Below, piece after piece: positions 12,720-43,947 of a DNA stretch of 64,000 bases (position 1 is its first letter; every line of letters starts with the position of its first letter). Made by a program: the position numbers and the translations under genes. The stretch comes from a virus (taxonomy: Duplodnaviria > Caudoviricetes), in IMG/VR virus record IMGVR_UViG_3300025000_000055, one strand, 5' to 3'. The notes under the pieces were generated by a model, which saw nothing but the letters and a program-made list of their open reading frames with translations, ran no database searches and was not told the origin of the DNA.

Positions 12720-15133
12720 TTATTTTTTTTTATTTAATGCTGATGAAAAATCAAATAAATCTTCTTCCTTATCTTCTTTAATTACTTTTCTTTCTACTGC
12801 ATTTCTTTTACCTTTTTTATCTATATTTAAATCAACACCTTCAAAATCTGTTGATAGACTTTCTTCGGATAATGAATGATCTAAATGAACATCGTCAATA
12901 AGTCTAATTCTATTACCCATTTCAAATGGATGATTGAAATAAGATAATTCATAAGTATCCCTATATCTTATCTTAACTCTTTTAAATGTTAAGTAATAAT
13001 TATTATCATTATTTTTCTTTTTCTCTATATTGATAATACACGTCCAGTCTGAGTTTTCTACGATTTCCCCTTTTAATTCACATAGATCGTTAATCTATGC
13101 AGTTCTCTTATGAACTTCCTTAGTTTTCACTAAGATAATAGACTATATCTTCATCCATTATATAATCAGTATAATGGAGTTTCCTATTTCGATTTAAAGG
13201 ATTCTCACCCACCTACATAGGCCCTACTCCTGTTGTGTATTTCAACACCAATGGGATAGTCGTTGAACCTTTCTCATAATAATATATATGAGACTTGGCT
13301 GCGGATTACTCAATCCTAAAACCTTGTTACTATACCTTGGTTGATTAGTCCAAGCCATTATATTATTACTAATATAATTTAGTAGTTTTAGGCTCTAAGA
13401 GCTTCCCCGACAATTAAAGAAATAATAACATAATATTACTATTATGAAGCCCTATTTATTAAGGCAGAGCCCACATTACCACGTCCAAGAAATCTCGCTA
13501 AATCCTCTTTGTTAGCCATTAAAGCTGAATCTACACTTATTGCACCAGACCTATTTAATTGATGGGCTGTGATTACAGGTATATCTTTATCGACGGCTAA
13601 ATTCTTTAATTCATTAGTTATATTTTTTAATTCTTCTTTTTCATCTTTAGCTCTTTCATAAGGTCTAATTCTTTTAATATAATCTAAAATCAAAGATATT
13701 ACTTCTTTACCATCATCAGATAATTCATCTATTATTGTATATAAATCAGCTGTTGATATTTCTCTATTAGAATAATATTTAATAATAATATCAATATCAT
13801 TACTATCTGATAAAACTAATTCTCCATCTTCTTTTAATTTTTTTATTACTTGTTTAGCTGTAAAACTTCTAATATTGTCTGAAGTTACAGTCATATTAAA
13901 TAATCTTTCAACACTTTCTTGACGTTATATTCACATAGGTCGTTAATCTATGCAGTTCTCTTATGAACTTCCCTAACTTTCATTAGGATACTAGACTATA
14001 TCTTCTTTCTTTTTAGAAAGTCTCTCCATTTCGATTTAAGGGAATTTCACCCACCTACTTAGGCCCTACTCCTATTGATCATTTCAGATCCAAAGGGATA
14101 GTCGTTGAACTTTATTCCTTATTATATAAGGAATCTTAGCTGCGGATCACTCAATCTCTTACCTTGTTACCATACCTAAGGAATTACCCTTCGCCACTTA
14201 ATATAATAATATACTAAGTTTGGTAGTAAGAACTCTAAGAGTTTTCCCGACAATTAAAAAAGAACCGGCCAATAATCTAACCGTGTTTTCCATTGTTAGT
14301 AATAATACGCAGGGTTTTTTACCAGGTTTTTTAACTTTCATACCTTTGTTATATTTCTTTATATCTATTGCTGTTTTTAAAAGAATTCCAGATTTAAATC
14401 CAGCGGGTAAACCTAAATATGTATAAAGGCATGTACTCATATAGCCTGGAGATAATATATGATTTAATTTTTGTATACCTGTTTTTAATATACGTGCAGG
14501 ATCTTTTAACTCATTAACTATATCTGTTACGACATCTTCAAATACACCTTCTTCTAAACTAAAAGTCTGTGTATTATCAACAGTTGAAACTTTTCTACTA
14601 TGATTTAATATTTTACTGCATATATCAATTAAGTCTTCATTTATTTCCTGAAAACTATTATATGAACCACTATCAAGACGTTCAATACTTTCATATAATC
14701 TATCCTTATAATTAAATAAATATGCATATTTAAGTCTATCAACAATAGCTTTATTAATATATTTAATCTCTTCATAATTTATCTTCTTATATATGAGTAA
14801 AGATTTTATAATCTCTTCTATTTCTTTGTTGAAAGTATCAGTTCTACAATAATTAATTATCGCATCTTCGTTCTCAAAACCTCTATCTAAACGAGCTTCT
14901 AAAGCTCTTTTAATAAAATAAATTCTCGATTCTATCTTTTCATTTCCTTCATATATTCTTTCATCTATAATTTCAAATAAATTCTTTAAATTATTTAAAG
15001 ATTTTCTTGATACTTGTGAAGAATTTTTAAATAAAAAACCTATCAACATATTTAACATACTAATATCAAATTTTAAGCTTATTTTTTTTACTTCATTCTC
15101 AACCACCTTAAATAATTTTTTTCTACTTACCAT
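12720..15133 (-). CDS. dnaB: DnaB-like replicative helicase, spliced: exons 15133-14280, 13922-13462, 13069-12720 (554 aa)
   Basis: Walker A GLPAGFKS; removing two introns restores TMENTV-QESVERLF and GNVGSA-WEIVENSDW; IIIKYY region, PVITAHQLNR. Exon lengths 854+461+350=1665 nt, in frame. Confidence 0.85.
13070..13461 (-). ncRNA. Group I intron (ORF-less, 392 nt), helicase intron 2
   Basis: Core elements AATTGTCGGGGAA (P), AATCCGCAGC (Q), GTTCAACGACTA (R), AAGATATAGTCT (S); P1 GCCU/GGGC with U.G; ends in omega-G. Confidence 0.9.
13923..14279 (-). ncRNA. Group I intron (ORF-less, 357 nt), helicase intron 1
   Basis: Same P/Q/R/S elements; P1 CGGU/GCCG; 3' end CCTATGTGAATATAACG; splicing restores the frame. 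Confidence 0.9.
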
Positions 15134-16334
15134 TAAAAGATGTCCTCCTCTGTATCTGTTGATATAAATAGTATCTAATTTTATCTACTGTAATGTCTTT
15201 ATTATATTTTATTTTTATAAAATTAGAAATCTTTTCTTCTGGACATATATTCTTATTAAATATAAATCCATATTTCTCTAATAATAAATTTATCTTTTCT
15301 TCAGTTTCTTTTTTTTGTCTCAATTTACTATTATTATTAATAATAACTTTTACATTTGAATACTTATTAAATACTTCATTTATCATATTAGTAAATAATA
15401 AAGTATTATGAAAATCTTCTGGAATATTTATTATTAGTCTAATATAATCTATTATTAAACTATCAACTAATTGTATTAGATAATCTATTTGTTCTTTTTC
15501 ACTGTTATTAAAGAAAGATTTATTGTTATAATCTATAGTGATAGTATCATATCTTTTAGCTAAATTATTAATTATGAATTCAGTATTAAAACTTTTACTA
15601 ATAGGTGAATAAGAGAATAAATAAAATCCTTTATCATTTTCTTCTCCAAAACACCATCTAGAGAAAGAACCTGTATAAAATATACGTTCCTTTATTATTT
15701 GTGATTCATGTATATGACCAAACATTATTAATCCATCCGTTATATTTAATAAAGTATCTGAATTAAATATAGGAGCTTTACTCATTGTCATTTCACTTTC
15801 TTGTTTATTAGCAACAAAAACAACTTCACCAAATAAACCATGACCAAATATCATATCATATTTAGACTCAAAATATTCTTTATAATAGTCATCTTTATTT
15901 TCAACATATTCTTCGGGTAAATATAATACTTTTAAATCATCAAATAATAATTCACTTTCAACAGTGTAAATTATTTTAAAATCATATTTATTATTTTTGG
16001 TATATATTTCTAATATTTCTAATTGTTTATTATCATGAGACTCAGTTCCTTTTATTAGTCTAACCTTAATATTTTTTTTATAAGCAATTTCCAATAATCT
16101 AAAAATAAATTGTAAAGAATATTTGGCATGATCTGAATTCATTGAAATCTTAGTATTAAAAAAATCTCCTACTATAACTATAAAATCTATTACTTTTAAT
16201 TTTTCGATATAGTTTAAATATCCTTTTTGTAATTGATAGTATAAGTCTTTTGATTTAATGGATGAACCAAAATGAATATCACCTATAGAAATTCCAACAT
16301 AAACCTTATTACTCAAGTATATTCCCCCATTCAT
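15123..16334 (-). CDS. sbcD: SbcD/Mre11-like metallophosphoesterase nuclease (true start probably TTG near 16316)
   Basis: GDIHFG, VGDFF, GTESHD, GHG, GHIH, YTGSFSRW. Confidence 0.8.
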   Translation of the reverse strand: MNGGIYLSNKVYVGISIGDIHFGSSIKSKDLYYQLQKGYLNYIEKLKVIDFIVIVGDFFNTKISMNSDHAKYSLQFIFRLLEIAYKKNIKVRLIKGTESHDNKQLEILEIYTKNNKYDFKIIYTVESELLFDDLKVLYLPEEYVENKDDYYKEYFESKYDMIFGHGLFGEVVFVANKQESEMTMSKAPIFNSDTLLNITDGLIMFGHIHESQIIKERIFYTGSFSRWCFGEENDKGFYLFSYSPISKSFNTEFIINNLAKRYDTITIDYNNKSFFNNSEKEQIDYLIQLVDSLIIDYIRLIINIPEDFHNTLLFTNMINEVFNKYSNVKVIINNNSKLRQKKETEEKINLLLEKYGFIFNKNICPEEKISNFIKIKYNKDITVDKIRYYLYQQIQRRTSFNGK

Positions 16335-16986
16335 CAGTACAATTTAATTCATACCATGAATGAAATAAGGTTAATAAATGTTTAAAAACCTTTATATAAT
16401 TATTTAGTTTCCTTCTTGTAAAAATCCTTTCCTTATATCCAGAATTATTAATAATTAAAATACCTGCTTTTTCAACTTTTAATCCTTTTTCTTCAATTAA
16501 CATACAATAACCAGCTAATTGTAAAAACATTGTTGAATAAAAATTTTTAGATGTTTTAAAATCCAATATTGTTAATTTATTATCTATTTTACCATAAAAA
16601 TCTATAGTTCCTCCAAATTTATCTGATACTAAAGATTCTTCTAAATATATCGGTTTTATTGTATGTAAATCCTTCCATATATTAAACGCCTTAATATGTA
16701 AAAAATTAGGATTTAGTATATGATATAAATTACTATATTTTTTATTAATTAGATCTTTATCAATTGGTTGATTAGATAGAATACAATTAATAATATAGTG
16801 AACTAAGGTACCAATATCTGAATATTCTTGTATAACTAATTCATAACTTTGTCTTTTAAATCCTAGATGATTAACCCACTTTAATAACTTAGGTTTATTT
16901 AATAATTGTAATATAGTGGTAACACTAGGGACTTCTTCATTTTTATCATTTACATAAATAGTATGATTCTTATTATATTTACCCAT
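16309..16986 (-). CDS. PD-(D/E)XK exonuclease
   Basis: PSVTTIL, GTIDFYG, DFKTS, QLAGY. Confidence 0.85.
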   Translation of the reverse strand: MGKYNKNHTIYVNDKNEEVPSVTTILQLLNKPKLLKWVNHLGFKRQSYELVIQEYSDIGTLVHYIINCILSNQPIDKDLINKKYSNLYHILNPNFLHIKAFNIWKDLHTIKPIYLEESLVSDKFGGTIDFYGKIDNKLTILDFKTSKNFYSTMFLQLAGYCMLIEEKGLKVEKAGILIINNSGYKERIFTRRKLNNYIKVFKHLLTLFHSWYELNCTDEWGNILE

Positions 16987-17064
16987 ATTTTAAATTATCC
17001 TTTCTAATAAATTTTCTTTATTTAATAGTTGACTGAAAAATAATTTATGAAAAACGTATTATAA

Positions 17065-17076
17065 AACATACTAATA
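17065..17076 (+). promoter_or_regulatory. Late-type promoter AACA-N6-TA
   Basis: AACA-TACTAA-TA upstream of 17095. Confidence 0.6.
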
Positions 17077-17094
17077 AATACAAACAAAAAGGAA

Positions 17095-18051
17095 GTGAAT
17101 TATATTGTGGCTTTCAAATCATTAGAAGATACTTTTATTTATAAAAATTTAAATAAAGGTGATATTATATCAACTAATATAAGTAAAATATTTAAAGAAG
17201 GTATAATACTTGAACAAAAAAATCTAGAAGAAGCCTTTATCATTATTAATAAAAATTTTAAATTCCCTCTAAAATATAAAGTAATAGAAGATTTTCAAAA
17301 AGGTGGATTAATTTTAATGTATTCACCTGATCATGTTAAATTACCTACATCGTTGCCATTTTTTTTAACACGAAATTCTAAGGATGAAATAATTACAATA
17401 ATATTGGTTGATTTATATGGGAGTATGAATAAAGAGACTAGAAATATTAATATAGATGTTAAAAAATTATATTGTATTATGGAATCTGCTTATGTAGCTA
17501 AATTATGTTTTTTAAATGCTAATACAATTAATGTGTCTAGTACTGTAATGACTTATGGTTCTATAATATATGCAAATATGTTTACTAGAGTTTTAAATAA
17601 AAAATATGCATTGAATGTAGATAGAAATAAATTTAATAAAATTATTTTCTTATCCAGTAAATTCTTTTTAATAAATATATTGAATAAAACTGATAATGAT
17701 ATGATTTTCAATTATTGTTTAAAGAATTGTGTTGAAGGTAATAAATTTATTCTTAGTGAAGTTAATGATATTTTTAAAATTGAAGATTTTAATGATTTAT
17801 CCACATTTATTAATGGGATAATTAGAACAGAGCTAGGGATGAATTTTAAAGATTTATCTGTTAGAAATTATCTTGAATCATTCATTAATATGTATGATGG
17901 TTCAGCTTTATTAGCATTGGAGTCATTTCCTTATTTTATGTATAATATATTGGCTGTAATTACTGGTGCTTATTTAAACAATCAATATATTTTAGAAGAT
18001 ATTGTACAAACTAATGGAACTAAATTATATCAATATTTTTTAAATTTATAA
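17095..18051 (+). CDS. Hypothetical protein, probably virion structural
   Basis: 318-aa ORF after a late-type promoter in a structural cluster. Confidence 0.65.
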   Translation: MNYIVAFKSLEDTFIYKNLNKGDIISTNISKIFKEGIILEQKNLEEAFIIINKNFKFPLKYKVIEDFQKGGLILMYSPDHVKLPTSLPFFLTRNSKDEIITIILVDLYGSMNKETRNINIDVKKLYCIMESAYVAKLCFLNANTINVSSTVMTYGSIIYANMFTRVLNKKYALNVDRNKFNKIIFLSSKFFLINILNKTDNDMIFNYCLKNCVEGNKFILSEVNDIFKIEDFNDLSTFINGIIRTELGMNFKDLSVRNYLESFINMYDGSALLALESFPYFMYNILAVITGAYLNNQYILEDIVQTNGTKLYQYFLNL

Positions 18052-18114
18052 AAAATTATTATTTATTAATAAATAATAATTTAATACATCGAATTATAAA
18101 GAGGTGAAAAAAAT

Positions 18115-18438
18115 ATGAGTTATTTAATACGACAACGTAAAGTTACTATGGTTAATTGGGAGAGTATTGATCCTATATTAGCTAAAGGTGAAATTGGTAT
18201 TGAAATTAGCTCTGATAATATTATTAAAATTAAGGTTGGTAATGGTGTTGCTAAATGGAGTGAGCTTAACTATATATTTAACTCAGAAGATATATCTTTA
18301 ATTTATAGTAGTATTAACACTTTAACTACAAATTTAAATAATTTATCAATAGATGTGACTGATACAGTAACAGAAGAAAAGTATCAATGGGGTATGGAAA
18401 ATGGTGTAATATTTTTAGAAAAGGTGGTGGAACCATAA
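18115..18438 (+). CDS. Tail-associated protein with Mtd_N/hyaluronidase-N-like domain
   Basis: W..IDPILAKGEIGIE ... KIKVGNGVAKWSELNY. Confidence 0.7.
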   Translation: MSYLIRQRKVTMVNWESIDPILAKGEIGIEISSDNIIKIKVGNGVAKWSELNYIFNSEDISLIYSSINTLTTNLNNLSIDVTDTVTEEKYQWGMENGVIFLEKVVEP

Positions 18439-18439
18439 T

Positions 18440-19399
18440 ATGAGTGATAGAATTTTTTTAGGTTCAATAATAGATGTTGATAATTCATATTATAAATCCG
18501 TTATGAAGTTAGCTTTAATTACTAAAAAAGAAAGTTATCATCCATATGGAGGAATTATTAATAGTTTGGCTCAAGATACAGATTTTATTTATGTGGGTGG
18601 TGTCACTCTTAACACAATAATAAAACTAAATAAATCTGATTTATCAGAAGTGGCAAGAAGTATTGTTTATGGTGGTGCTATTAAAAAAATAATAGTTGAT
18701 GATTTATTTGTTTATGCTGCTGAAGCTAACGCAATAATAAAACTAAATAAATCTGATTTATCAGAAGTAACACAAACTTTAAAAGGCACTTGTGAGACTT
18801 TAACTCAGGATGCATTATATATTTATATAGCTTCTTATAATGGTGTTAATAATAAAGTACGAAAACTAAATAAATCTGATTTAATAGAAGTAGGGGAAAG
18901 TCTTGACTATGGTAATACTATTAAAGCTATACATCAAGATGAAAATTATATTTATATTGCAGGAGATGTACCTGGAAAAGTGAAAAAACTAAATAAATCT
19001 GATTTAATAGAAGTAGTAGCAGAATATCCTGGCTATGGTAATACTATTTATGATTTATTAATAGATATAGACTATATCTATACAGTTGACAATAGTGGAA
19101 TATTAAGAAAAATGCTTAAAACAAATTTGTCTGTTGTGGAACAAATTCAAACTTATGAAACTGTGTTATTTTCTATAGTGGGAAATGGAGATTACCTCTA
19201 TATTGCAGGAAATAGTGGAAAAATACTAAAAATACTTAAATCAAATTTATTGATAGTAGCAGAAGGATGTAGTAGTATTGATAATGCTATTTATTCTTTA
19301 ATAGAAGATGGTGATTATATCTATTCAGGTGGTGTTTCTCAAAAAGTTTATAATTTAGAAAATCTGTACCAATTATTAGGATACAAAAAAATTCAATAA
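18440..19399 (+). CDS. Beta-propeller repeat protein, possible receptor-binding protein
   Basis: About 7 repeats of roughly 40 aa, D..YIY.AG...KIIKLNKSDL.EV. Confidence 0.7.
   Translation: MSDRIFLGSIIDVDNSYYKSVMKLALITKKESYHPYGGIINSLAQDTDFIYVGGVTLNTIIKLNKSDLSEVARSIVYGGAIKKIIVDDLFVYAAEANAIIKLNKSDLSEVTQTLKGTCETLTQDALYIYIASYNGVNNKVRKLNKSDLIEVGESLDYGNTIKAIHQDENYIYIAGDVPGKVKKLNKSDLIEVVAEYPGYGNTIYDLLIDIDYIYTVDNSGILRKMLKTNLSVVEQIQTYETVLFSIVGNGDYLYIAGNSGKILKILKSNLLIVAEGCSSIDNAIYSLIEDGDYIYSGGVSQKVYNLENLYQLLGYKKIQ
18615..19016 (+). repeat. Intragenic direct repeats encoding propeller blades
   Basis: Exact 37-bp pair (18615, 18732) and exact 32-bp pair (18862, 18985); all share AAAACTAAATAAATCTGATTTA; spacings within pairs are multiples of 3. 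Confidence 0.85.
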
Positions 19400-19417
19400 A
19401 ATTTAATTTTAAATTTT

Positions 19418-19516: not shown

Positions 19517-19544
19517 AAACCTTTTAATAGAGAGGTGATGAAAT

Positions 19545-30973: not shown

Positions 30974-31048
30974 CTCCAGACGAATCTTCCTAAAGTATCC
31001 TCGTTTAATTTCATTCTCCCCCTTAAATTTTTCTTACTTATTACGCAA

Positions 31049-31060
31049 ATAATATATATT
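31049..31060 (-). promoter_or_regulatory. Early-type promoter AATATATATTAT
   Basis: Exact motif. Confidence 0.6.
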
Positions 31061-31108
31061 TATAACATTAGAATATACGATTTTTTAAATATTATTAAAT
31101 TTAAAGTT

Positions 31109-31462
31109 TTAATGTATAACAATAAAATCAACTGATTCAGAATAATAACCATTAGAATAACCATACCATCTAATAGTAACATAACCTTTTATTGTTGCAA
31201 ATTTATAAAAGGTCCATGTACAACTATGAATTACATGTTTACAATCATCTCTATTAGTGATTTTCTCTGCCATTATTATAGGGGAATTAATTAAATTATT
31301 TAGGTCTCCTATAATATCCTCAATAAGAACAGTTTCACAACATTTTTGGGCATGATACATTATATATTTGGTACCATCATTTTCACAAAAAAATAATTCA
31401 TCGTTTCCATTCTGTTTTATTTCTACTATTATTTTTCCAACTAATTCTTTAACATTAATCAT
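31109..31462 (-). CDS. Conserved phage protein
   Basis: MYHAQKCCETV.IEDI.GDL ... TWTFYK.AT.KG.VTIRW.G.SNGYYSE, a motif set common in small phage proteins. Confidence 0.75.
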   Translation of the reverse strand: MINVKELVGKIIVEIKQNGNDELFFCENDGTKYIMYHAQKCCETVLIEDIIGDLNNLINSPIIMAEKITNRDDCKHVIHSCTWTFYKFATIKGYVTIRWYGYSNGYYSESVDFIVIH

Positions 31463-31544
31463 AAAATTACCTCCCTTTATTCACGCTCCTAATTATGTTA
31501 TATAAATAATATAACATAATTAGGATATTTTAAATTATTATTTT

Positions 31545-34039
31545 TTAAATATTGTTAAATTCATATAGACCAATGATCTGGTCTTTTAATAGATTAAAAT
31601 CATCATTAAATAAACCATCATTTCTAGAAATAAACATGGAGGTCACTGGGTTAAAGGTCTTATTAAAGGCTTTTATATGTTTTTTAGACTTCAAGGATAT
31701 GATATTTAGAATATCTCCGTCAAACATTATGTTTTATATAAAACATAAACTGTATTTTCATACAGAATGGACTATATCTTCATCCTACTATTGTAGGAGC
31801 TATGTGCTTCCCAACCAGCCCACAAACTGATCAGTACTTTACTCACTTATATTCAATATATTTTACTTGATATAAGCTTTCAATAGTCTCTAGACCCATC
31901 TCCACTAGTTTATATAATTTAATATAATTTTTATCCATAAGATTCTCATATAAATAACTTCTATCAATGTTATCATCTAATCTAAAAACATACCATCCAC
32001 AAACACGATAACCATTTAAAATAAAATGACTAATTATATCTCTACCCTTACCAATAAAATTACCAAATAATTTTCCACTATCACAAATATAACAATTATT
32101 ATCTCTAAATACTATAACCCTTTTTGATTTTTTCTTTTTTGTAATACCTGTTTCTTTAAGACCTTTATGAGATTTTGACATTAATTCTTTGGTCGTTTGA
32201 TTTAAACAACCTTTTAAATCACCCAAGCGGGAATTATATCCAAATTCAGGATTTGTTGTATTAAAATACAGTATATAATATTTTTCCTTTCTGGATAATT
32301 CTTTTTTAGAAAAAGCATCATCTATTACTTCAAAACTAAAATTATGAAAACCTATTTTATTAATAATTCTCATAATTGTGTAATTATATTTTTTATTAGA
32401 AAAAACTTTACGTGTTTTATATTCATTAATTCTACGTATTATATTTTTAGTTTGACCGATATATTTTTTACCATTGTTTTTATTTGTTAGAACATATATA
32501 AACCCGTAAGGTTTTATGTTGATTATCATATATTTATTTTCACCTCCTTATTTTTCCTTATAAACTAGTGGAGTTTGGCACGGTATTGCCTGCTATCCAT
32601 ATTTCAGGACCGTAGGTTCTCTTAGTCAGTGTTTTCGCTTATGGACATGTCATATAGACAAGACTTGTAATTGTCATACAAGTAATCTTATTTAACTGAT
32701 ACCGTTAGCAAGTAATAATAAAATATTACTCACACCGCTTGTTAAGCGTTCACATAGAACTCGCTATATCATTACTGATACGCCGGACCTTGATGGTAGA
32801 TTGATCCGCATTTAAAACCTTTAATATTTGTATAGGTAAACTCATTGTATATTGATCTGTATTATCATTCTTAATATCAACTATTTTCATTAAAAGCATA
32901 GATCCATAATTAATTGTAGGGTTTCTATTGATAAGAACTTTTGGTTCCCACTTCTTTAATAAATATTTCATTATTTCATATATTTTATTATTATAAACAA
33001 TGGTACCTTTATACCAATATTCATATGCTTCATTCTCAGAAATATCATTTATTCTAGAAACATGAGTTATTATCTCATATTTATACAATTCTAAAAATGC
33101 CAAATAACCTAATTTAATTTCATTTGCTTTTAAAACAGGATCAGGTATTACAACGCAGCGGGCTGAAAAATTAATTTTACCACCGAGAATCTCCCATTTG
33201 ATATGACCTTTTCTTTGATCTATCTGTTTAAATATTAAATAACATAATTCAATTAATTTCTTTTGAATTATACTAAGAATTTTATTCTCATCTATATCCC
33301 CCCAGTCTTTATTCTTTCTAGTTTCTATTAAGTCTCTATCTTTTAATAGATTGCTTAAAGAAACTATTGGATTATATTTCTTATCCATAGAATTATAGAA
33401 AAATGATTCTCCTTTAAATTGAGAGGGTCTCAATACAGATGAATAAACTGGAATACATGAAGCAAATACTTTATCCTTCTCTTTATATAATTCTTCAATC
33501 ATTTCAATCTTATTCTTCTTTTTGGCTCTATAATAATCCATTATTTCATCAAATCTTTCTTTGAACTCCATAATACCAATACCTTTAAATGGAGTTTTAC
33601 CTTGTTTATTAATTATATGACCGTCCTTAGTAAATTCTTTATCATATTCAATAATTTCAAGGAAACCCTTTTCTCCAATTATTGATTTTAACATCCTGTA
33701 AAATATTGGATGTATTATAAAATACTCACCTAATTTAATCCAACCAGTAATCTTTAAATCAACATCTTTAAATTTAACTATTGTACCACATATAGAACAT
33801 TCTTCTTCATCATATAATCTACCTTTTAACTCACCACATTCACAAGTATATCTTTCAGCAAATGCATCATCATCTTCAAAATCTGTAGCAAATAAAGGTG
33901 ATTGGATACCATATTTAGATTTCTTCTGCTTACCTTTAAAAGCAGGTTCTTTTATTTCAAAACCTTTTCCTATAATAAAATCCTTTTCACACTCCTCATC
34001 CCAATTTAATTTTACTAGTCTAACTTCATCATGTTTCAA
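31545..34039 (-). CDS. rpoC: Non-virion RNA polymerase beta' N-terminal subunit, spliced: exons 34039-32804 and 31724-31545 (471 aa)
   Basis: Zn finger CECG..CSIC, GGKINFSAR, NRNPTI; splicing joins NAD+FDGD, the catalytic motif; C-terminal FNLLKDQIIGL resembles AR9 nvRNAP beta'N as recalled. Confidence 0.9.
31725..32803 (-). mobile_element. Group I intron (1079 nt) with GIY-YIG homing endonuclease, inside the NADFDGD motif
   Basis: P1 CGGAU/GUCCG; GCTAACGG (P4), AATACCGTG (Q), GAGACTA (R), AAGATATAGTCC (S); omega-G at 31725. Confidence 0.9.
31843..32529 (-). CDS. Intron-encoded GIY-YIG homing endonuclease
   Basis: GFIYVLTNKNNGKKYIGQT..RR..EY, E and GYN residues; NUMOD-like C-terminal half (ETKELMSKSHKG); AAGGAGGTG RBS. 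Confidence 0.9.
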   Translation of the reverse strand: MIINIKPYGFIYVLTNKNNGKKYIGQTKNIIRRINEYKTRKVFSNKKYNYTIMRIINKIGFHNFSFEVIDDAFSKKELSRKEKYYILYFNTTNPEFGYNSRLGDLKGCLNQTTKELMSKSHKGLKETGITKKKKSKRVIVFRDNNCYICDSGKLFGNFIGKGRDIISHFILNGYRVCGWYVFRLDDNIDRSYLYENLMDKNYIKLYKLVEMGLETIESLYQVKYIEYK

Positions 34040-34169
34040 ATATAATACACCTCCATTTAATTATCTTATTTAAAAGTTCTTAGACTTTTAAATCTCTACT
34101 AAAATATAATATATGTATAAAAAAAATATTGTTTATCAGAAAATTATATTCTGATAAACAATAATAAAA

Positions 34170-34529
34170 TTATTGAATTTTAAAAGGAGTTTTTAACAAT
34201 TTAAATATATCTTTTACCATTACCAATAATATATGAAAATGATGTTCATAAAAATCATTAACACCAGTTTTTTCTATTTCCTCTTTAAAACCTTTCATAA
34301 TCTCACACTTATCTTCTTTATAGTTATAATCAAGGATTTCTAAAATTTGTTCTTTAACATTTCTCTTACAAATTTCTTTATTTTTTACACCAGCTGGAGT
34401 TACAAATACCTCAGTTTTTTTCATAATTTCTTTTAATATATTTTCATTTAATTCATTAACATTTTTTAAAAATACATTAAAGTCAGTGGTATTATTTATT
34501 TCTAAAATTAATTTTTTATTCTCACCCAT
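34170..34529 (-). CDS. Hypothetical protein
   Basis: ORF with RBS in a co-oriented operon. Confidence 0.65.
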   Translation of the reverse strand: MGENKKLILEINNTTDFNVFLKNVNELNENILKEIMKKTEVFVTPAGVKNKEICKRNVKEQILEILDYNYKEDKCEIMKGFKEEIEKTGVNDFYEHHFHILLVMVKDIFKLLKTPFKIQ

Positions 34530-34554
34530 TTTTTCAACATCACCCCATTTTTAT

Positions 34555-34779
34555 TTATTCTTTCCAGTTCATATTCTCTTTAATTGTAGTTAATAATAGC
34601 TTTTCATATTCTTTTTTATTTTGTAAAACTTCTTCAATAGTATTATTTGAATGAACAAAAGCTATTACAGTTTCATGACCAATAGGATTTTTTAATACCA
34701 ATCTAGTAGTTGTTTTAGTAGTATCAACATATTTATTTGATACATCATGAACATCTATAAATAACTCAAAACCTATCAT
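34555..34779 (-). CDS. Hypothetical protein
   Basis: GGAGGG RBS. Confidence 0.65.
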   Translation of the reverse strand: MIGFELFIDVHDVSNKYVDTTKTTTRLVLKNPIGHETVIAFVHSNNTIEEVLQNKKEYEKLLLTTIKENMNWKE

Positions 34780-34802
34780 ATACCCTCCATTTAGAAAATA
34801 GT

Positions 34803-35204
34803 TTATACTTCGTTTTTCCTATTTTCTAATTCCATTAATGAGCGTTCTAACATTATTCTTTGAATCATATAAATTTCTTTCATATGATTTTCTTTTTCCG
34901 ATTCATATAAAACTATTAATATTTCTATTTCATTTTTTATCCAAATTGACAAATTTTTTATTCTATTATTAGCTCTAAATAATTCATTACTAAGTCTAGT
35001 ATTATGATCGTGAAAATGTTGTCTACTACGAATAAGTTGTTCTTTTGTAACATCTTTAAAAAGTTTATTTTCAATTTCAGTTAATTCTAAATCTGGTGTA
35101 GGAACATTACCAAATATTTTTTCAATTAGTTCCCAGCCTTTATCTAAAGCATTATTTATTTGTTGTTCAATTAAATCTTTATCAGCTTTATCATTAACAT
35201 GCAT
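34803..35204 (-). CDS. Hypothetical coiled-coil protein
   Basis: GGGGG RBS. Confidence 0.65.
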   Translation of the reverse strand: MHVNDKADKDLIEQQINNALDKGWELIEKIFGNVPTPDLELTEIENKLFKDVTKEQLIRSRQHFHDHNTRLSNELFRANNRIKNLSIWIKNEIEILIVLYESEKENHMKEIYMIQRIMLERSLMELENRKNEV

Positions 35205-35227
35205 TTTATAACATACCCCCTTTTAAT

Positions 35228-35497
35228 TTATTTTTCGTTTCCAGCTATTATTCTTATATCCTGTGAAGGAACATAATCAAGTATAACCTGTTTATTTAAA
35301 AATTCATTTAATTTAGGCATACTGTCAAAAGAACTCTCAACCTTCATATTATCAGGATTTAGTAATAAAACATTATCGTTAATCTTATTAAATATAATTA
35401 TACGCTTTATATGATATATACCATCAATATATTGAATATAATCTCCAATATTAAAGGCATACTTTGTCTTACTACCCTCTCTTATAAAAACAGGCAT
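35228..35497 (-). CDS. Hypothetical protein
   Basis: AGGAG RBS. Confidence 0.65.
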   Translation of the reverse strand: MPVFIREGSKTKYAFNIGDYIQYIDGIYHIKRIIIFNKINDNVLLLNPDNMKVESSFDSMPKLNEFLNKQVILDYVPSQDIRIIAGNEK

Positions 35498-35519
35498 AAG
35501 TTCACTCTCCTTTATTTTT

Positions 35520-36818
35520 TTAAATTATTTCTTTTAATAATAATTTTTCTTTATAAGTATTAAAACTTTTAACATGTTCATTTTTATTTTTAGTTAGAAT
35601 GTTATATGTTGTTTCAACCGCTTCTTCAATGGTTAAATCATTATTACATGCTAATAAATATTTGGTACCAGTCATGATTTCTTTTAGATTAGCCATAGGT
35701 AAATTATCACTATATTTAACAAAAAGTTCTATAACTGCATTATCACTATCAGGTTTATTATCATCTTTATAGACTTTATATTCTGATAATAATTTTCCAA
35801 TATTTCTATTTTGGAAAAATGCACGGCGTATATTTTCTGATGGGTTATCAATTTTATATGTGCGATCAAAACGACCAGATCTATTCATAAAGGCAGGATC
35901 AATATGATCAGGATAATTTGTTGTACCAATGATATACACTCCAGATTGAACATCAATACCATCTAAAATATTTAGAAATTCTGATCTATTTCTTCCACTA
36001 ATTATTGAATCAATATCTTCAATTATAATAATAGCCTTTTTACCATTTAGTGATTTAATTAATATTGATAAAATTTTAGGTATATCATTAATATTAGGGT
36101 TTATTACTATTTTAGAAATCCTAGGTAATATCCTGATAATTTCCCGTATCATAGCACTTTTACCATTACCAGGTTCACCATATAAAATAACCCCTCGCTT
36201 ATACGTAATTTGTAATTTTTTATACATATTATATGTTTCCTCTTTAAAGAATAAATCAATATCTTTCATAACTTCTGTTATTGTTGAATCTTCAGTAAAT
36301 ATAAGTTTTTCTTTAATAATTTTTTTCTTCACAATATCAGCAGGTCTCTTTTCATGATTAGAAGAATTAGAGATTTCAATATATTCTCTATTTCTACATT
36401 TAAAATCAATTTCCCGAAACATATTAGTATTAGTATCTCGTTGTAATATTATCTTTGCATTTTTTGAAAATGTTTCTAAATACTCAGTGTCAATTAAAAA
36501 AGTGCATCGAATATAATAATAACCATTAGCCGTATATAACACAATAGAATTAATTTTTTTAGATATAGCAATACGCTGAAACATATTAAAATTAGATGAT
36601 AACTCATAACCATTAATCATTTCTGGTTGAGGGAGAATATCAGGGTAATCATAAACATTTCCTATATTTTTAAATTTACATTCATGAAGGATATCTTTAA
36701 TAATATCTTCACTATGTACTTGAAAATCAACCTTTTGATATTTTTCTAAATAAACACTACGTTCAAACAATTCTTCATTAACTAAGTTAACAAGTGCTAA
36801 TTCCATGGTTTTATCCAT
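35520..36818 (-). CDS. AAA+ ATPase (classical AAA clade)
   Basis: GVILYGEPGNGKS, IIIIEDID, LDG, TTNYP..IDPA..RSGRFD. Confidence 0.9.
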   Translation of the reverse strand: MDKTMELALVNLVNEELFERSVYLEKYQKVDFQVHSEDIIKDILHECKFKNIGNVYDYPDILPQPEMINGYELSSNFNMFQRIAISKKINSIVLYTANGYYYIRCTFLIDTEYLETFSKNAKIILQRDTNTNMFREIDFKCRNREYIEISNSSNHEKRPADIVKKKIIKEKLIFTEDSTITEVMKDIDLFFKEETYNMYKKLQITYKRGVILYGEPGNGKSAMIREIIRILPRISKIVINPNINDIPKILSILIKSLNGKKAIIIIEDIDSIISGRNRSEFLNILDGIDVQSGVYIIGTTNYPDHIDPAFMNRSGRFDRTYKIDNPSENIRRAFFQNRNIGKLLSEYKVYKDDNKPDSDNAVIELFVKYSDNLPMANLKEIMTGTKYLLACNNDLTIEEAVETTYNILTKNKNEHVKSFNTYKEKLLLKEII

Positions 36819-36867
36819 TATTTATACCTCCTAAAAATTATTAATACCAATTAATAATTTTTTTCAC

Positions 36868-37323
36868 TTAAAATAATTTAACTAATTTTTCTAATAGTTC
36901 TTGATAAATATACCAATCCTTACAGCAATCTTCTTTTGAGTATCCCACTATACACTCCCCTATACTTGGAATTAAACCTCTTCCACCCATCGGACGTTCA
37001 TTAAATGGTAAACTACAACCTTGTTCTGTTAATAACATACACACACCACCCCAAGAGGGATCGACAATAGGTGCATTTTTATTTCTTATTCTAAGATATA
37101 ATGTACGGTCTCTATCCTTATCAAAAATATCACCGTCCCACCAATCAATTGATATATAGTCTTTTTCAATTAAATCCTTTAAAGTTTCAAAATCTATATC
37201 TTCGAAATCTTTAGGTGAAAAGTGACATCCTAAATTTTTACAACATTTACCACCACATTCAAAACATAATTTACTATTTTCATTATTACTTTGAAAGTTA
37301 TTTTCTATTTCTATATTTAACAT
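36868..37323 (-). CDS. YkgJ-like Cys-cluster (Fe-S/Zn) protein
   Basis: CFECGGKCC..LGC ... CMLL....C....ERP. Confidence 0.7.
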   Translation of the reverse strand: MLNIEIENNFQSNNENSKLCFECGGKCCKNLGCHFSPKDFEDIDFETLKDLIEKDYISIDWWDGDIFDKDRDRTLYLRIRNKNAPIVDPSWGGVCMLLTEQGCSLPFNERPMGGRGLIPSIGECIVGYSKEDCCKDWYIYQELLEKLVKLF

Positions 37324-37339
37324 AATAAAACCTCCTAGA

Positions 37340-37792
37340 TTAATTATAAAATTCTGTATATCTCCTAATAAAATTTCTTACTTTATTAAGTTCATCAATA
37401 GTTGGTGTAAGTATATTAATACTATTCAATGAATTTAAAAAATCTTCTTCTTCAAAATGTAATTCATATTGAGGTGAATTACAATCACCATATTCGAACT
37501 CAATAGTGTCACAATTTATTTTACCTGAAATATCAATACATGTTCCGTCAGGTTTAATACAATAAGCATGTACTAAGGCTTTACTATATGTGGTTTCTTT
37601 ATTTTGTTCATTAACAAATTCTGCTTCTAAATCAAATAAAAGTTTTATATTATAACCAAGTTCTAAATGAAGAGCTTGGGCGAATATATGACATTTCCCA
37701 TATAAATACTGTTCAATAAATTTTCCATTTCCTCCCATTACTCCATAAAATGAGTGTTGTTCCATAAATTTAATCATTCTTTCTAATCTCAT
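37340..37792 (-). CDS. Hypothetical protein with possible Cys-His-Asp triad
   Basis: YGKCHIFAQAL ... VHAYC ... IDISG. Confidence 0.65.
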   Translation of the reverse strand: MRLERMIKFMEQHSFYGVMGGNGKFIEQYLYGKCHIFAQALHLELGYNIKLLFDLEAEFVNEQNKETTYSKALVHAYCIKPDGTCIDISGKINCDTIEFEYGDCNSPQYELHFEEEDFLNSLNSINILTPTIDELNKVRNFIRRYTEFYN

Positions 37793-37828
37793 TTTTCATT
37801 ATCTCCTATTTATTTTATTTTCATATTA

Positions 37829-37877
37829 ATAATATATAAATTAAAAGATATATGATAATTAATTATCATATATCTTT
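37829..37877 (-). promoter_or_regulatory. Palindromic terminator (37844-37877) followed by early-type promoter (37829-37838)
   Basis: 34-bp perfect palindrome after the nrdD stop; TATATATTAT immediately downstream. Confidence 0.6.
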
Positions 37878-37893
37878 GTCTTAATTATTATGA

Positions 37894-40316
37894 TTATACT
37901 CCATCAATATGCGTTCCTCTATCTTTAAGTTCTGATTTCTTAGCACTATTAAACATATTTATTGTACTTAAATATCCTGTAATTCTTCTTACTCTATTAA
38001 TGTCTTCAGAACTACAGCTTGGACATTCCTTAGGATATACTCCCGAATAATTACATGAACGGCAAAAATCAACTGGGAAATTAATCCCACCGTACCCAAC
38101 ATCACACTCTTTCATATATTTAATAATATTAATTACAGCTTCAGTATTATAAAGAAAGGGAGATGATGACTCAATATAAGTAATATGACCGGCATTACAA
38201 TACTTATGAAAAGACCCTTCCAACATAATTTTACTGAACCAACCAATATTATATCCTACTGGTATATGAAAACTATTAGTATAATAATCTTTATCAGTAA
38301 CCCCTGGAATGATTCCAAATTGTTTTTTATCAAGTCTTAAAAATCGACCTGACAATCCTTCAGCTGGTGTTGCTAATAGAACAAAGTTAAGTTTTCTTTT
38401 AATTGTTTCATTATCACAAAATTTTCTCATTAATTTTATAATACTTAAACCAAGTTCATATACATCAGTATCTTCTCCGTGATGTTTACCAGTTAAAGAT
38501 ACTAATGCTTCTGCAAGACCAATAAATCCAATTGACATAGATCCATGTTTGATAGATTCTTCTATCTTATCATTATAATCTAATTTGTTAGAATCTAGAT
38601 ATAAACCTTGACCCATAATAAAAGGCATATCTCTTACAAGTAGATTCTTCTGTATGTCATATCTATGATTAAGTTGATCAAATATAAGATTTGATTTACT
38701 TTCAAGTAATGTAAAAAACTTTTCAATACTACCTTTTGCTTTTATTGCAAGTCTAGGTAAATTTAATGTTGTAAATGATAAGTTACCTCTCTTATCTGTA
38801 GTTTCAGGTCCATTAATATTACCAATAACCCTAGTTCTACAACCCATATAAGCTACTTCAGCATCACCTGTGTATTGCTTATTAAAACTAGAGTCCATAA
38901 ATGAAAAAGTTGGATTTAATTTAGTACCAGCTATTTCACAAGCTAATTTAAATAAATCATAATTTGGATCTCCTGGTTCTACATTAACACCATCTTTAAC
39001 TTTAAAAATAATATTTGGAAAAATTGGATTTTCTCCCTTACCTAAACCGGCTTTATATGCAAGTAAAATATTTTTTGTCACTTTTCTTCCTGCGTCACTC
39101 ATATCAGTACCAATATTTAAACTACTGAAAGGTACCTGAGCTCCAGCTCTAGAATGCATACTATTTAAATTATAAATAAGAGCTTCACATGCTTGATAAG
39201 CCTCGTTATCATTAGCATCAACAAAAAATTCAGCCATATCCTTATCAAAGAAAGCAAATGATTGACCACCGTGCATATCCACTGTACCGCCTCTTTTGAG
39301 GTATTTCAAACGGGTTAGACTATATCATATACCTATTTTTTATATAGGTACCCTGGCACTTCGGATCGGGATTTTCACCCTTATTACCCCTACTCTACTC
39401 GCTTCGTGTATCAATGATACCTTATTTTCAACATCAGAAAAGATGTGTATAGCTTTCGATAGTCGTTAGCGTTTCTCTAATATTTTTAAAAATATTAGAG
39501 CTTACGACGGTATTACCTGCTATCCATATTTCAGGACCGTAGGCTCTCTTAGAAAGTGTATTCGTTACTATATAACTAGTACTTATTTAACTTTTACCGT
39601 TAGCCAGATATTATATCTGACACCCATCTATTGATGGTTCACCAGGTTATTCAATGTACATTACTGTACAAGGGAACAAATTAATTATTCTGAGCACTTT
39701 GTAAAACTATAGCCGCTAATGCAGTTGCACTACTTGTTCTTTTAGGCGGTCTAATCCAACCATGTCCATTATCAAAACCTTTAGTTAGTATTTCTTTTAA
39801 AGGTATTTGTAAACATGTTAGAGTTTTTCCATAAAAATCTAAATCATGTATATGAATATAACCTTCTCTATGGGCATTTGATATTTCTTCAGGTATCATT
39901 CTAGATAAATAAAATTTTCTTGAAGCTTCGCTTGCAATTTGTAACATTTTAGCCATTGGTCCAGTACCAATATTTGCATTTTCTCTTGAAGTTTCTTTTA
40001 TTATATCTTCCACACAATCCATTAATTCACTTTGGCCTTCTCTAATACGAGTTCTATTATTTCTATATAAAATATATGCTTTTGCTGTTTTAGCTTTCCC
40101 ATTATCAATTAAGACTGTTTCAACAACATCCTGTATGTCTTCAACATTATGTATATCTTTACCTAAATTTTCTAATCTATTATAAACTTCTAAAGCTAAT
40201 TTAAAAGAAGTTGAATTATCATTTCCTCCTAATGACTGAGCTGCTTTAAAAATACAACTAGCCACTGTTTCAATACTAAAATCAACTATTCTACCATCAC
40301 GTTTCATAACTTGCAT
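37894..40316 (-). CDS. nrdD: Class III (anaerobic) ribonucleotide reductase, spliced: exons 40316-39687 and 39279-37894 (671 aa)
   Basis: ATP cone VMKRDGR, IHIHDLD; splice gives QSAQN-DMHGGQS; MGCRT, ATPAEG, YYTNSFH, CxxC..CxxC, RRITGYL glycyl-radical motif. Confidence 0.95.
39280..39686 (-). ncRNA. Group I intron (ORF-less, 407 nt) in nrdD
   Basis: P1 GAAU/GUUC; GCTAACGG, AATACCGT, AACGACTA, ATGATATAGTCT; omega-G at 39280; shares a long P5 segment with the beta'N intron. Confidence 0.9.
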
Positions 40317-40348
40317 TTATATTCCCCCTTATTTTTTAATTATAATTA

Positions 40349-40909
40349 TTACACAAAATATTTATAATAAAGCTCTTTGATTATTTCAGCATCCCATAAA
40401 GCATTATGTTTTAAAGCTTCAGAATTAATTTTTTTATCTAATAAATCTTCTCTTGTAACATTAAAAGCTTTACGAGCATCTTTATTAAAGTATTTGATTA
40501 GGTCATTGTTAATATCATAACATGCTGGACATACATTTTTAGGTAAGTCAAAAGCTGTACCAAATAAATCAATAAGTAATACAAAGTCATAATGACATAC
40601 ATCTGAAACAAATAAAATTTCTTCATTATTAAATTTATTTAACCATTTCTTTAATTCTATTACTATCTCTTTTTTACTACCATAAAAATAATAATCTGGC
40701 ATTTTTGCTTTTTGTTCAATAATATTTTTTCTATTTACCCATAATTTATCAATAACATTTTTTTGTATCCAATTATCTACTTGTGATTTATTATAATCAT
40801 TGAACTCAGCATAAAAGTTGTCATCATTTTCTGATATAATACCTAATGAAATTAGAGTAGTCTCCTTATGGAGCCCTGTGAATTCGCAATCAAAAAATAA
40901 TTTTATCAT
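40349..40909 (-). CDS. DEDDh 3'-5' exoribonuclease (Rv2179c-like)
   Basis: FFDCEFTGL, LISLG, FYAEF, HNALWDA. Confidence 0.8.
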   Translation of the reverse strand: MIKLFFDCEFTGLHKETTLISLGIISENDDNFYAEFNDYNKSQVDNWIQKNVIDKLWVNRKNIIEQKAKMPDYYFYGSKKEIVIELKKWLNKFNNEEILFVSDVCHYDFVLLIDLFGTAFDLPKNVCPACYDINNDLIKYFNKDARKAFNVTREDLLDKKINSEALKHNALWDAEIIKELYYKYFV

Positions 40910-40975
40910 AATTTATTCCTCTTTTTTGTATTAATCATCCAAAGTTGTTGTTTCAGTTAATATTTCTTTTAGGTC

Positions 40976-41314
40976 CTAATTATCTTTATCTTTTCCTTCT
41001 GTATTATTACTTATTGTTTCAATACATAAATCAATACATTTTTGACAAATAGAAGCATTTTCAGAATAAATAATAATATTTTCATCAGAATTCTTTTCCC
41101 CACAAAAAGAACAAAAAACACCACTTTCTCTATAACTAGCTTTTGTAGAAGTAATAAAAATATTTTTAAGATTAAATTTATTTTTTTCAACCCAATTTTT
41201 AAAAATATTAATAATATCTTCAATATACTTTTCTTCTGGAACTAAAATTTTTGAATCTAAATGTAATAATTTAGTATTTATATTACTATTTTTATTAATA
41301 AAAGGTATTTTCAA
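40976..41314 (-). CDS. Small protein with ClpX-type C4 zinc finger
   Basis: FCSFCGE...IIIYSENASICQKCIDLCIETI resembles the ClpX N-terminal ZBD. Confidence 0.75.
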   Translation of the reverse strand: MKIPFINKNSNINTKLLHLDSKILVPEEKYIEDIINIFKNWVEKNKFNLKNIFITSTKASYRESGVFCSFCGEKNSDENIIIYSENASICQKCIDLCIETISNNTEGKDKDN

Positions 41315-41335
41315 AATAATATTCTCCTTTATATT

Positions 41336-42379
41336 TTATTTATTTAACCAATTAACTAGTTGATTTCTTGATTCTATATTATCTAAAAAGAATTGAGCTA
41401 CACAACCACCACCACATCTCATTATTTTATCACATTCATTTACACATATTTCTGGTATTTTTCGTGTTCTTAAAAATATAAGAAGTTTATCATAATTCCA
41501 TATATTATATAAATTTGTTTTTAAAATATTATTAGGTGTTATAAAATTACCTAACCATTTAAATGCTTCACATGGAAATATATCACCTTTAGCAGATATA
41601 TTTAATTTATTAATACCAACTGAGCATGGTTTATTATTTTTATCATCAGTTATACAATTAAAAGGACAACCATATCTAATAGATAAATTTTTATATTTTT
41701 CATTACTAATTTTAATAGTTATTTCTTTTAATAAAGATTTCATATTATCCACACTAACTTTTAATTCATCATTATTTAAACACCTACCTTGTGAAACAAG
41801 TCTTAATAAACTTATTTTTTTAATACCAATATCATTAACTAAATCTATTAAATCTAAAAAATCAATATAATTTATATTTATAGGAACGAAATGAATTTCA
41901 GTTTCAATATTATATTTTAGACAACTTTTAATTGAATTTATAATAGTGTTAAACACATTTTTAATTTTAACAATTTTATATATTGTATCATCATTTGACC
42001 CATGTAAACTAATTACAATCTTATTAATATTTCTTTTAAAAAATAATAAAGTATCTTCAGATATAGATGATAATTCGTTATTATGATATATAATCCCACA
42101 ACTATAAACAGTAATGTGTAAACCTAATTTTTTAGCAAAAGAAATTATTTCTTTAAATTCAGGGTGAAGTAATGGGTCTCCACCTGATATGGATAAATTT
42201 TTAACTCCTTCAGAAACAGCATCTAATAATATATTTTTTACATCTGAAAATAATAACATATCATTACTCTTAGAATTAGCTTTAGAAGAACAATGAATAC
42301 AATTTAACATACATTTATTTGTTATTTCTATACATAAATTTTTTAAACCAATATCTGGGAACAACTGATACATTCTCAA
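41336..42379 (-). CDS. Radical SAM protein with SPASM domain
   Basis: CxxxCxxC (CMLNCIHC), SGGDPLL, C.VG..KL.I...GDIFPC, C..C....CGGGC. Confidence 0.9.
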   Translation of the reverse strand: MRMYQLFPDIGLKNLCIEITNKCMLNCIHCSSKANSKSNDMLLFSDVKNILLDAVSEGVKNLSISGGDPLLHPEFKEIISFAKKLGLHITVYSCGIIYHNNELSSISEDTLLFFKRNINKIVISLHGSNDDTIYKIVKIKNVFNTIINSIKSCLKYNIETEIHFVPININYIDFLDLIDLVNDIGIKKISLLRLVSQGRCLNNDELKVSVDNMKSLLKEITIKISNEKYKNLSIRYGCPFNCITDDKNNKPCSVGINKLNISAKGDIFPCEAFKWLGNFITPNNILKTNLYNIWNYDKLLIFLRTRKIPEICVNECDKIMRCGGGCVAQFFLDNIESRNQLVNWLNK

Positions 42380-42392
42380 ATTATCATCCCCC

Positions 42393-43947
42393 TTATATAA
42401 TTAAGTTATTTAATTTAACTTGTGATATCTGGGATGTACTATTGTGAAATTTCTTCATAGATAAATTAACTAATGTAGATGAAACTCTTGCTGATGTTAA
42501 TCCAATATTAGTTATATTTAACTTCTCATACATAAGTCCAGCACATACACGACATAATTTCTTAGATATACAACCCATAGGTGTTCTCATTTTAACTTTA
42601 ACTCCAAAATATTTATGTATATTATCATCATCTAATAAAATTAATTTGTTCCCTTCCATAATATATCTATATAAATAGTCGTTAATAGTATTTTTAGTTA
42701 TTATTACATCCATTAATCCTTTAGAACCACAATTACTCCCTTTATCATCTAAAACAACAGCTTGTAAAGCTGCAATAATTTTTTTAGAAAAATAACCTGA
42801 ATCAGCTGTTCCAATAGCTTTTGGATCTATATATTCACATAGGTCGTTAATCTATGCAGTTCTCTTATGAACTTCCTTATCTTTCGATAAGATACTAGAC
42901 TATATCTTCATCCTTATTATTTCTAATAAGGAGCTCTCCATTTCGATTTAAGGGATTCTCACCCACCTACTTAGGCCCTACTCCTATTGCTTATTTCAAA
43001 GCCAATGGGATAGTCGTTGAACTTTTCTCATATTTATGAGACTTAGCTGCGGATTACTCAATCCTAAAACCTTATTACTAATATAATTTAGTAGTTTTAG
43101 GCTCTAAGAGCTTCCCCGACAATTAAAAGAGTAAAACATAATATTACTATTATGCCGCCCATAATTTATAGGCACCTGTTATAATAGCATTACCATAAAC
43201 AGCTAAATCTTCTTTTGTTATACCTTCCATTAAACAATTTTCAACAAAATCAAACTCTCCTGTAGACGGATTATATACAGGGCCTTTCATAATATTAGTA
43301 TTTTTATAGTTATTACTAAAAGTACCTCTAGCACCAGATTTATAAAGTTCATAACCAGTGTCATATTTTAATTCTTCTTCAGCTAATTTTATTAATTCTT
43401 TTTCAATTTTAACAGCTGTTATAATATCACCCTGTTTTAATTTATCTTTATTTTCTTTTATTAACTTTTTTTTCATATCAATAACTTTAGGATTGGGTTT
43501 AAATAATTTCATTGTATATGAACCAGAAATAACAATATGAAATTGTTGTGCTAACCATTGAATATCATTAAGATATTTAACCATAATATTGGTATCTATT
43601 TTATCATTTAGTAATGCTTTAGATAATTTATCTTCTATTTTTAAAAGTACTTTTTTATCTATAGTTTCATTTATATATCCCAGAATATTAACTAAGCTTC
43701 TTTCAATTATATATTTATTATAAATAAATAAACCAATATTAGTTCTAACCTTATCTTTGTTAAAATACTCACTTGGTTTTAAATCAAACTCATCCCATGT
43801 TTTAAATCTACTTTTAATAATATTAATTTTCTTATTAATATCTTTTTTAACAGTATCACCAAATAATTCTATTAATAATTCAAAAGTTATATCCTCGGGT
43901 TTTAAATTTAATAGATATTCTTTATCTTTTTGAGATATCAAATCCAT
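42393..43947 (-). CDS. rpoC: Virion-type RNA polymerase beta' C-terminal subunit, spliced: exons 43947-43170 and 42826-42393 (403 aa)
   Basis: Splice restores GAYPKAIGTADSGYFSKK (bridge helix); KMRTPMGC..KKLCRVC.G; LSMKKFH trigger loop. Virion assignment is inferred from late promoter and context. Confidence 0.8.
42827..43169 (-). ncRNA. Group I intron (ORF-less, 343 nt) in RNAP beta'C
   Basis: Nearly identical to the intron at 13070-13461; P1 UGCCU/GGGCG; omega-G at 42827. Confidence 0.9.

Follow-up and report, generated by a model that had tools for sequence, protein, structure and literature searches.

The subject of this analysis is a family of group I introns in IMG/VR virus record IMGVR_UViG_3300025000_000055 (Duplodnaviria; Caudoviricetes), three members of which interrupt a DnaB-like helicase gene and the gene for the C part of the beta' subunit of RNA polymerase (RNAP). 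The window, that is, the whole stretch of 64,000 nucleotides analyzed, is the reverse strand of bases 116891-180890 in the 187,268-bp record, which has a G+C content of ca. 24% and a completeness rating of 100%. The phage is an uncultured, AR9-like jumbo phage of groundwater, and the sequencing runs in which it occurs are four DNA runs, all from one groundwater study. The two loci contain the following features (family copies are lettered A to M; ORF, open reading frame; P1, P2, and so on, ribozyme helices).

14280-15133, minus strand: helicase exon 1; PHROG match to DnaB-like helicase, frame continuous once spliced
13923-14279, minus strand: copy L, helicase intron at codon ca. 285; 357 nt, ORF-less, without P2
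14266-14269, minus strand: guide GCCG of copy L (P1), with the 5' exon ending in CGGT
13462-13922, minus strand: helicase exon 2, which holds the HQLNR motif
13070-13461, minus strand: copy M, helicase intron at codon ca. 438; 392 nt, ORF-less, with P2 and P5c, last base G
13449-13452, minus strand: guide GGGC of copy M (P1), with the 5' exon ending in TGCCT
12720-13069, minus strand: helicase exon 3, from the spliced frame
43170-43947, minus strand: exon 1 of the RNAP beta' C part, from the spliced frame; PHROG 2962
42827-43169, minus strand: copy K, RNAP beta' C intron; 343 nt, ORF-less, without the P5c hairpin
43157-43160, minus strand: guide GGGC of copy K (P1), with the 5' exon ending in TGCCT
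42393-42826, minus strand: exon 2 of the RNAP beta' C part, the start of which falls within YPKAIGTADSGY
42834-42875, 13077-13118, and 13930-13971, minus strand: a 42-nt 3' block common to the three introns, with a P9.1-type hairpin CATAG/CTATG closed by TTCA/TGAA

Introns were called with the Rfam covariance model RF00028 (Intron_gpI) at a threshold of 50 bits. On the minus strand, copy M scored 64.9 bits (13118-13471), copy L 55.6 bits (13971-14313), and copy K 80.6 bits (42875-43179); the last match was obtained when its region was scanned alone, and a whole-window Rfam scan at an E value of ≤1 passed over it. Once the introns are removed, the helicase frame reads through as a DnaB-like protein of 554 aa and the RNAP beta' C part as one of 403 aa with YPKAIGTADSGY, and PHROG matches agree with both spliced gene identities. 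Given that all three spliced junctions align as single gapless blocks with the intron-less homologues of a close relative (L083 and L080), the intron boundaries are exact to the base. In that relative (contig 3300025000_000053), both genes are uninterrupted. The P1 pairings, which were set by eye (P2 hairpins misled the automatic P1 finder), are GCCU/GGGC in two introns and CGGU/GCCG in the third, with U before the 5' splice site and G as the last intron base in every case. Thus, the three ORF-less group I introns reported by the initial annotation are borne out by model matches, spliced frames, and junctions.

At 343 to 392 nt, copies K, L, and M are too short for a nuclease ORF. Between P7 and P3', they carry an insertion of ca. 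67 nt (as placed by the general RF00028 alignments), the hairpin of which covaries between copies. Judged by their sequences, they are functional-looking members of the group I introns (RF00028), probably of the IA type, and the insertion would be a P7.1/P7.2 element like that of Twort-like and phage K-like introns.

The three introns had also been described as near-identical. The long blocks quoted for this are indeed common to all three in the alignment, but the description was too strong: identity over profile columns is 88.6% for K and M, 80.8% for K and L, and 73.4% for L and M, and the two identical blocks correspond to the J6/7-P7-P3 core and the 42-nt 3' element. Over a core stretch of ca. 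130 nt, the identity with the lysK intron of K-like Staphylococcus phages is 82%. The 42-nt block is almost invariant across the family (its stem covaries in a few copies) and matches at 42 of 42 positions in the RNAP beta' intron of the Vibrio jumbo phage vB_pir03 (L089:2501-2556), which outside the block is diverged and richer in G+C. Because both blocks are also conserved in Vibrio and Staphylococcus phage introns, they indicate family membership, not recent copying. In Vibrio phages JA-1 and VCO139, the 42-nt block has an identity of ca. 96%, and the introns around it are diverged and of higher G+C content. The vB_pir03 intron was considered as a mate of the copy K site and rejected, as it occupies the DFDGD site. 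As for the 39-nt segment that the RNAP copy was said to lack relative to the helicase intron at 13070-13461, copy K is short of exactly the P5c hairpin.

The initial annotation had suggested a scan of the whole genome for more copies, and an nhmmer sequence profile built from the three window introns, together with blastn, located at least 13 family members in at least eight genes. Host exons outside the window had no Pfam hits, and the genes were named by PHROGs.

Copies A and B: gene of unassigned function at the contig start
Copy C: virion structural protein
Copy D: large terminase
Copies E, F, and G: one RNAP beta gene, within 1.9 kb, the exons between them being 43 nt and ca. 110 nt
Copy H: RNAP beta' N part, at the GRSVI motif
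Copies I and J: second RNAP beta gene
Copy K: RNAP beta' C part
Copies L and M: helicase

Five members, all beyond the window (D, E, G, H, and I), carry inserts of 640 to 860 bp in the P6a loop. Those of E, H, and I encode NUMOD4/HNH_3 proteins and that of G an HNH-AP2 protein, while the insert of D is a decayed NUMOD4/HNH remnant with internal stops. Every HNH_3 and NUMOD4 match of the genome falls inside family introns. Therefore, the lack of endonucleases attributed to the family holds for the three introns of the window but not genome-wide, where four members bear nuclease ORFs and one a decayed ORF. A placement of the nuclease ORFs at the 39-nt indel was rejected, the ORFs occupying P6a and the indel being P5c. 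Copy J (G000:C1:107260-108057) has no sense-strand ORF, and a 114-aa ORF lies on its opposite strand (107487-107831). The contig start (G000:C1:1-249) is the interior of intron A, the 5' half of which is absent from the other contig end. The contigs of two relatives likewise end within intron cores, so the family breaks assemblies.

The guide changes with the exon across 11 copies (e.g., CUGAU/GUCAG, GGGGU/GCUCC, AUGGGU/GCCCAU, GGGAU/GUCCC, and GUGU/GCAC). P1 is therefore supported, with each copy fitted to its own site.

Outside this genome, the 3' block pattern was found in 73 stretches of ca. 35 IMG/VR contigs, many of them with several copies, and the profile gave 156 matches in those 73 stretches, often in tandem clusters with exons down to 15 nt. 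Two related records had 16 and 20 profile matches. In relatives (L020 near 10670 and L056 near 3874, both minus strand), a 15-nt exon (GGNAP) lies between two family introns, of which the downstream one has the P2 of copies K and M, with guide GGGUG and exon CACCU, one compensated change away from UGCCU/GGGCG. In relatives, the two host genes were found in the following states.

Helicase, 3300025000_000053 (91.7% protein identity): no introns
Helicase, 3300025000_000078 (92%): introns at codons 407/408 (ORF-less) and 417 (HNH ORF), none at 285 or 438
Helicase, L031 (64%): nuclease-bearing intron exactly at the copy L site, with CGGT, guide GCCG, and no P2
Helicase, L084 (63%): nuclease-bearing intron exactly at the copy M site, with GCCT and guide GGGC
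Helicase, three others (ca. 65%): no introns
Helicase, one other (60%): small intron near codon 400-405
RNAP beta' C, L080, L092, and L076 (61-87%): site empty
RNAP beta' C, L081 and L038 (ca. 86%): site occupied
RNAP beta' C, L093 (ca. 59%): ORF-less intron 5 nt downstream, CCCU/GGGG

Across related phages, the helicase sites are thus found empty, with an ORF-less intron, or with a nuclease-bearing one, and in close relatives (87 to 92% protein identity), the three sites are empty or the introns lie at other positions. Nuclease-bearing occupants in relatives, which the initial annotation had named as evidence that would speak against transposition by reverse splicing, exist at both helicase sites but not at the RNAP site in the six homologues. 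Positions 1216-1275 of the helicase coding sequence (ca. 13510-13570, minus strand) show 13 differences in 45 nt from an intron-less, 92%-identical homologue. This divergence peak coincides exactly with the position of two introns in another relative and may be a co-conversion scar from former intron gain and loss.

The nearest relatives of an intron are not the same for its 5' and 3' halves. The intron at the RNAP site of a relative (L081/L038) is split over the ends of two contigs, which nearly meet within the core, so the repeat broke the assembly here. Its 5' half, anchored to exon 1, is identical to copy M at 176 of 193 positions (91%), including P5c and the P1 loop of M, and just 71% identical to copy K. 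In its 3' half, P8 is M-like and P7.1 and P9 are K-like, and this half is 97.4% identical to the terminase-site and B-site introns of relatives. The tree built from 5' halves pairs K with M as its sister, with a Shimodaira-Hasegawa-like approximate likelihood ratio test (SH-aLRT) value of 96 and 96% identity over 102 columns. The nearest 3' halves are the C-site intron of a relative for K (94.3%), copy C of the same genome for L (94.6%), and yet another copy for M (94.2%). In distant phages, the introns at the L and M sites resemble L and M no more closely than other copies do. Since the nearest relatives of the two halves disagree and site-mates are not the closest, ribozyme bodies have been exchanged between sites while the guide stayed with its site. 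By these comparisons, the copies are recombination mosaics, the ribozyme bodies of which do not track sites.

In agreement with the initial annotation, copies K and M both follow TGCCT and have the guide GGGC at intron nt 10-13, in non-homologous genes. P2 is common to them as well, and their flanks are otherwise unlike. Intron-less alleles read GCAU at the RNAP site. A second sub-lineage, with one P2 and guide GCCCAY, stands after ATGGT in two places, namely, as copy I in RNAP beta and at DYDG/D of beta' in a relative. These two patterns fit a selection of new sites by the guide, which reverse splicing would entail. If U at -1 is taken as fixed, chance predicts about one shared tetramer among the 66 copy pairs of the genome; the signal is that the pentamer-sharing pair, K and M, is also the closest pair. 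The shared pentamer is, however, equally expected from a filter for splicing viability or from gene conversion between sites alike by chance: any mechanism would leave it, because a new intron in an essential gene must splice at once and because conversion crosses P1 only between sites with the same pairing bases. The copy M site, moreover, is already held by a nuclease-bearing GGGC intron in a distant phage (L084). For K and M, a move between P1-constrained sites is plausible.

The window has two more intron-like regions, although an Rfam scan of 31000-40400 gave no match. A different group I intron (39310-39680, minus strand) splits nrdD, the anaerobic ribonucleotide reductase gene (exons 39681-40316 and 37894-39309). 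It reaches just 17.7 bits with RF00028; its P2 is family-like and its core is unlike that of the family. At 31749-32529 (minus strand), an ORF for a homing endonuclease of the GIY-YIG type (31843-32529) has directly behind it a fragment of a group I 3' core (P7'/P9, ca. 31749-31874, 28 bits). The ORF and the fragment are probably a nuclease-bearing intron of another family.

On balance, we think it probable that the family is kept and moved by nuclease homing, followed by ORF loss, intron loss, and ectopic recombination among copies. One large family has colonized essential genes, namely, two for RNAP beta, those for RNAP beta' N and C, terminase, a virion protein, and helicase, and one unassigned. 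I-HmuI-like HNH nucleases in P6a of some members most likely maintain and move it in the phage population by homing into cognate sites during co-infection, an event that we infer from nuclease-bearing members and site-mates. The nuclease ORF would be lost afterwards, giving small introns such as K, L, and M, and finally the intron itself would be lost, so that sites come to differ between close relatives. Every copy retains a short guide matching its own exon, and ectopic recombination swaps ribozyme bodies between copies, which we propose as the reason for the long blocks common to copies in unrelated genes. The common 5' module of K and M could have arisen by a move to, or conversion between, the two TGCCT sites. 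Several observations weigh against this homing cycle. The P6a loops of K, L, and M are clean hairpins with no ORF remnant, so their ORF-less state could be ancestral. At the RNAP site, no nuclease-bearing intron was found among six homologues, which show only empty and ORF-less states. The K and M sites share just the 5 nt that pair with the guide, which a nuclease site of ca. 20 bp would not explain. Finally, no clear co-conversion tract was seen beside the three sites, where the exons differ at 6 to 10 positions per 60 nt compared to a background of ca. 10%, a divergence at which power is low.

Reverse splicing, in which the excised intron RNA would enter another phage transcript or single-stranded DNA at a guide-matching site, be copied to DNA, and recombine, so that K came from M or vice versa, seems rather unlikely to us. 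It would account for the sisterhood of K and M in the 5' half with nothing but TGCCT/GGGC in common at their sites, for the relative with an M-like 5' half at its RNAP site and an empty helicase site, and for the ATGGT sub-lineage; in the K/M and ATGGT cases, related introns stand at non-homologous sites that share only guide-complementary nucleotides. That no co-conversion tract was seen, in a comparison of low power, may point the same way. The helper that it would need was looked for in vain: the 187-kb phage genome, to which the search was limited (a host enzyme could exist), has no RVT_1 reverse transcriptase match. Furthermore, a 2014 review of bacterial group I introns finds reverse-splicing mobility without direct experimental support and gives relaxed nuclease specificity as the alternative (PMC3984707). 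Against reverse splicing stand also the nuclease-bearing GGGC intron at the M site, the need of any newly arrived intron, or of any conversion reaching P1, for the same pentamer, and the chance expectation among the 66 pairs. The broader proposal, that guide-directed reverse splicing carries ORF-less introns of this clade into new genes, with P2/guide sub-lineages recurring at pentamer-sharing sites, we hold to be unlikely too.

Movement at the DNA level, in trans or to ectopic sites, is decidedly improbable. Nucleases of other members or free-standing ones, such as the GIY-YIG enzyme, would cut nearby, and repair would copy the ORF-less intron from another site or from the genome of a co-infecting phage. 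Four intact nuclease ORFs in family introns and a GIY-YIG gene in the window provide candidates, a free-standing HNH nuclease, T4 mobE, is documented to mobilize an intron with a defunct nuclease (PMC2790892), and relaxed nuclease specificity is a recognized route to ectopic integration (PMC3984707). Nevertheless, the sites share no sequence past 5 nt, and in the ORF list, the neighbors of the helicase and RNAP beta' C genes include no nuclease. We give very little credence to the TGCCT match being coincidence and the likeness of K and M being only a matter of concerted evolution on top of a conserved core. In its favor, the core blocks recur in phages as distant as those of Vibrio and Staphylococcus, one shared tetramer in 66 pairs is what chance predicts, and recombination among copies is demonstrated, but K and M, which share the pentamer, are also more alike than any other pair in the variable P2-P5b region, and the second sub-lineage repeats the pattern. 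Returning to nuclease homing with later losses and recombination, the earlier idea of spread between unrelated genes is right in that one family occupies non-homologous genes; its qualification "rather than by homing" does not agree with the nuclease-bearing members and site-mates.

For annotation, the consequence is that helicase, RNAP, terminase, and other core genes of this group of phages become readable only after the removal of ca. 13 introns, inside which assemblies break. With its many polymorphic, recombining copies of one ribozyme, the clade is a good natural data set for telling apart homing by nucleases, gene conversion from copy to copy, and guide-constrained moves to new sites, which in most cases are confounded. 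Were the reverse-splicing reading true, dozens of polymorphic copies in groundwater phages would be the first protein-gene data for a statistical test of that pathway.

AR9-like jumbo phages have introns in genes for RNAP subunits, terminase, polymerase, and gyrase, at positions that differ between sister phages (bioRxiv 10.1101/2020.12.14.422802). The present phage resembles the AR9/PBS1-like phages (Bacillus AR9; Staphylococcus MarsHill, Madawaska, and Machias) in having two multisubunit RNAPs and introns in RNAP, terminase, and replication genes, the number and position of which vary between close relatives. Compared with them by published description, it differs in being uncultured, from groundwater, of ca. 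24% GC, and with nearly all of its introns in one family. For Jug gut jumbo phages, which infect Bacteroides, a mean of 18.5 group I introns per genome is reported, the introns being ca. 206 nt long (PMC12880540). Jug and crAss-like gut phages are similar in their many group I introns and HNH nucleases in essential genes, while the Jug phages differ in their ca. 206-nt introns and are unrelated to the present phage. Spread of group I introns in rDNA by reverse splicing was proposed by Roman and Woodson, by Birgisdottir and Johansen, and by Bhattacharya et al. (as cited in PMC3984707). The likeness lies in related introns at separate sites with a 5' flank matching the guide; unlike in rDNA, the hosts here are protein-coding genes of a DNA phage, with nuclease-bearing relatives and no reverse transcriptase encoded.

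The homing-endonuclease cycle of invasion, ORF decay, ORF loss, and intron loss is matched by the helicase sites, which are empty, ORF-less, or nuclease-bearing depending on the phage, and by the decayed ORF of copy D. The RNAP site, with only the first two of these states in its six homologues, departs from it. The ribozyme bodies do not follow sites, so recombination from copy to copy is superimposed on the cycle. The Staphylococcus phages Twort and K provide the classical case of small related introns, in orf142, nrdE, lysK, and polA; Landthaler and Shub, in 1999, reportedly described Twort orf142 as having three ORF-less introns. The present introns share with them ribozymes probably of the IA type, the ca. 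130 nt of core that are 82% identical to the phage K lysK intron, the packing of small related introns in one gene (here E, F, and G), and HNH nucleases in some members, but this family extends over at least eight genes and 13 copies. HNH, NUMOD4, and AP2 nuclease ORFs within the same family tell against the undescribed mobility system that the initial annotation had suspected, and no new system is indicated: the case is a large, well-resolved new example of the known intron-rich phages.

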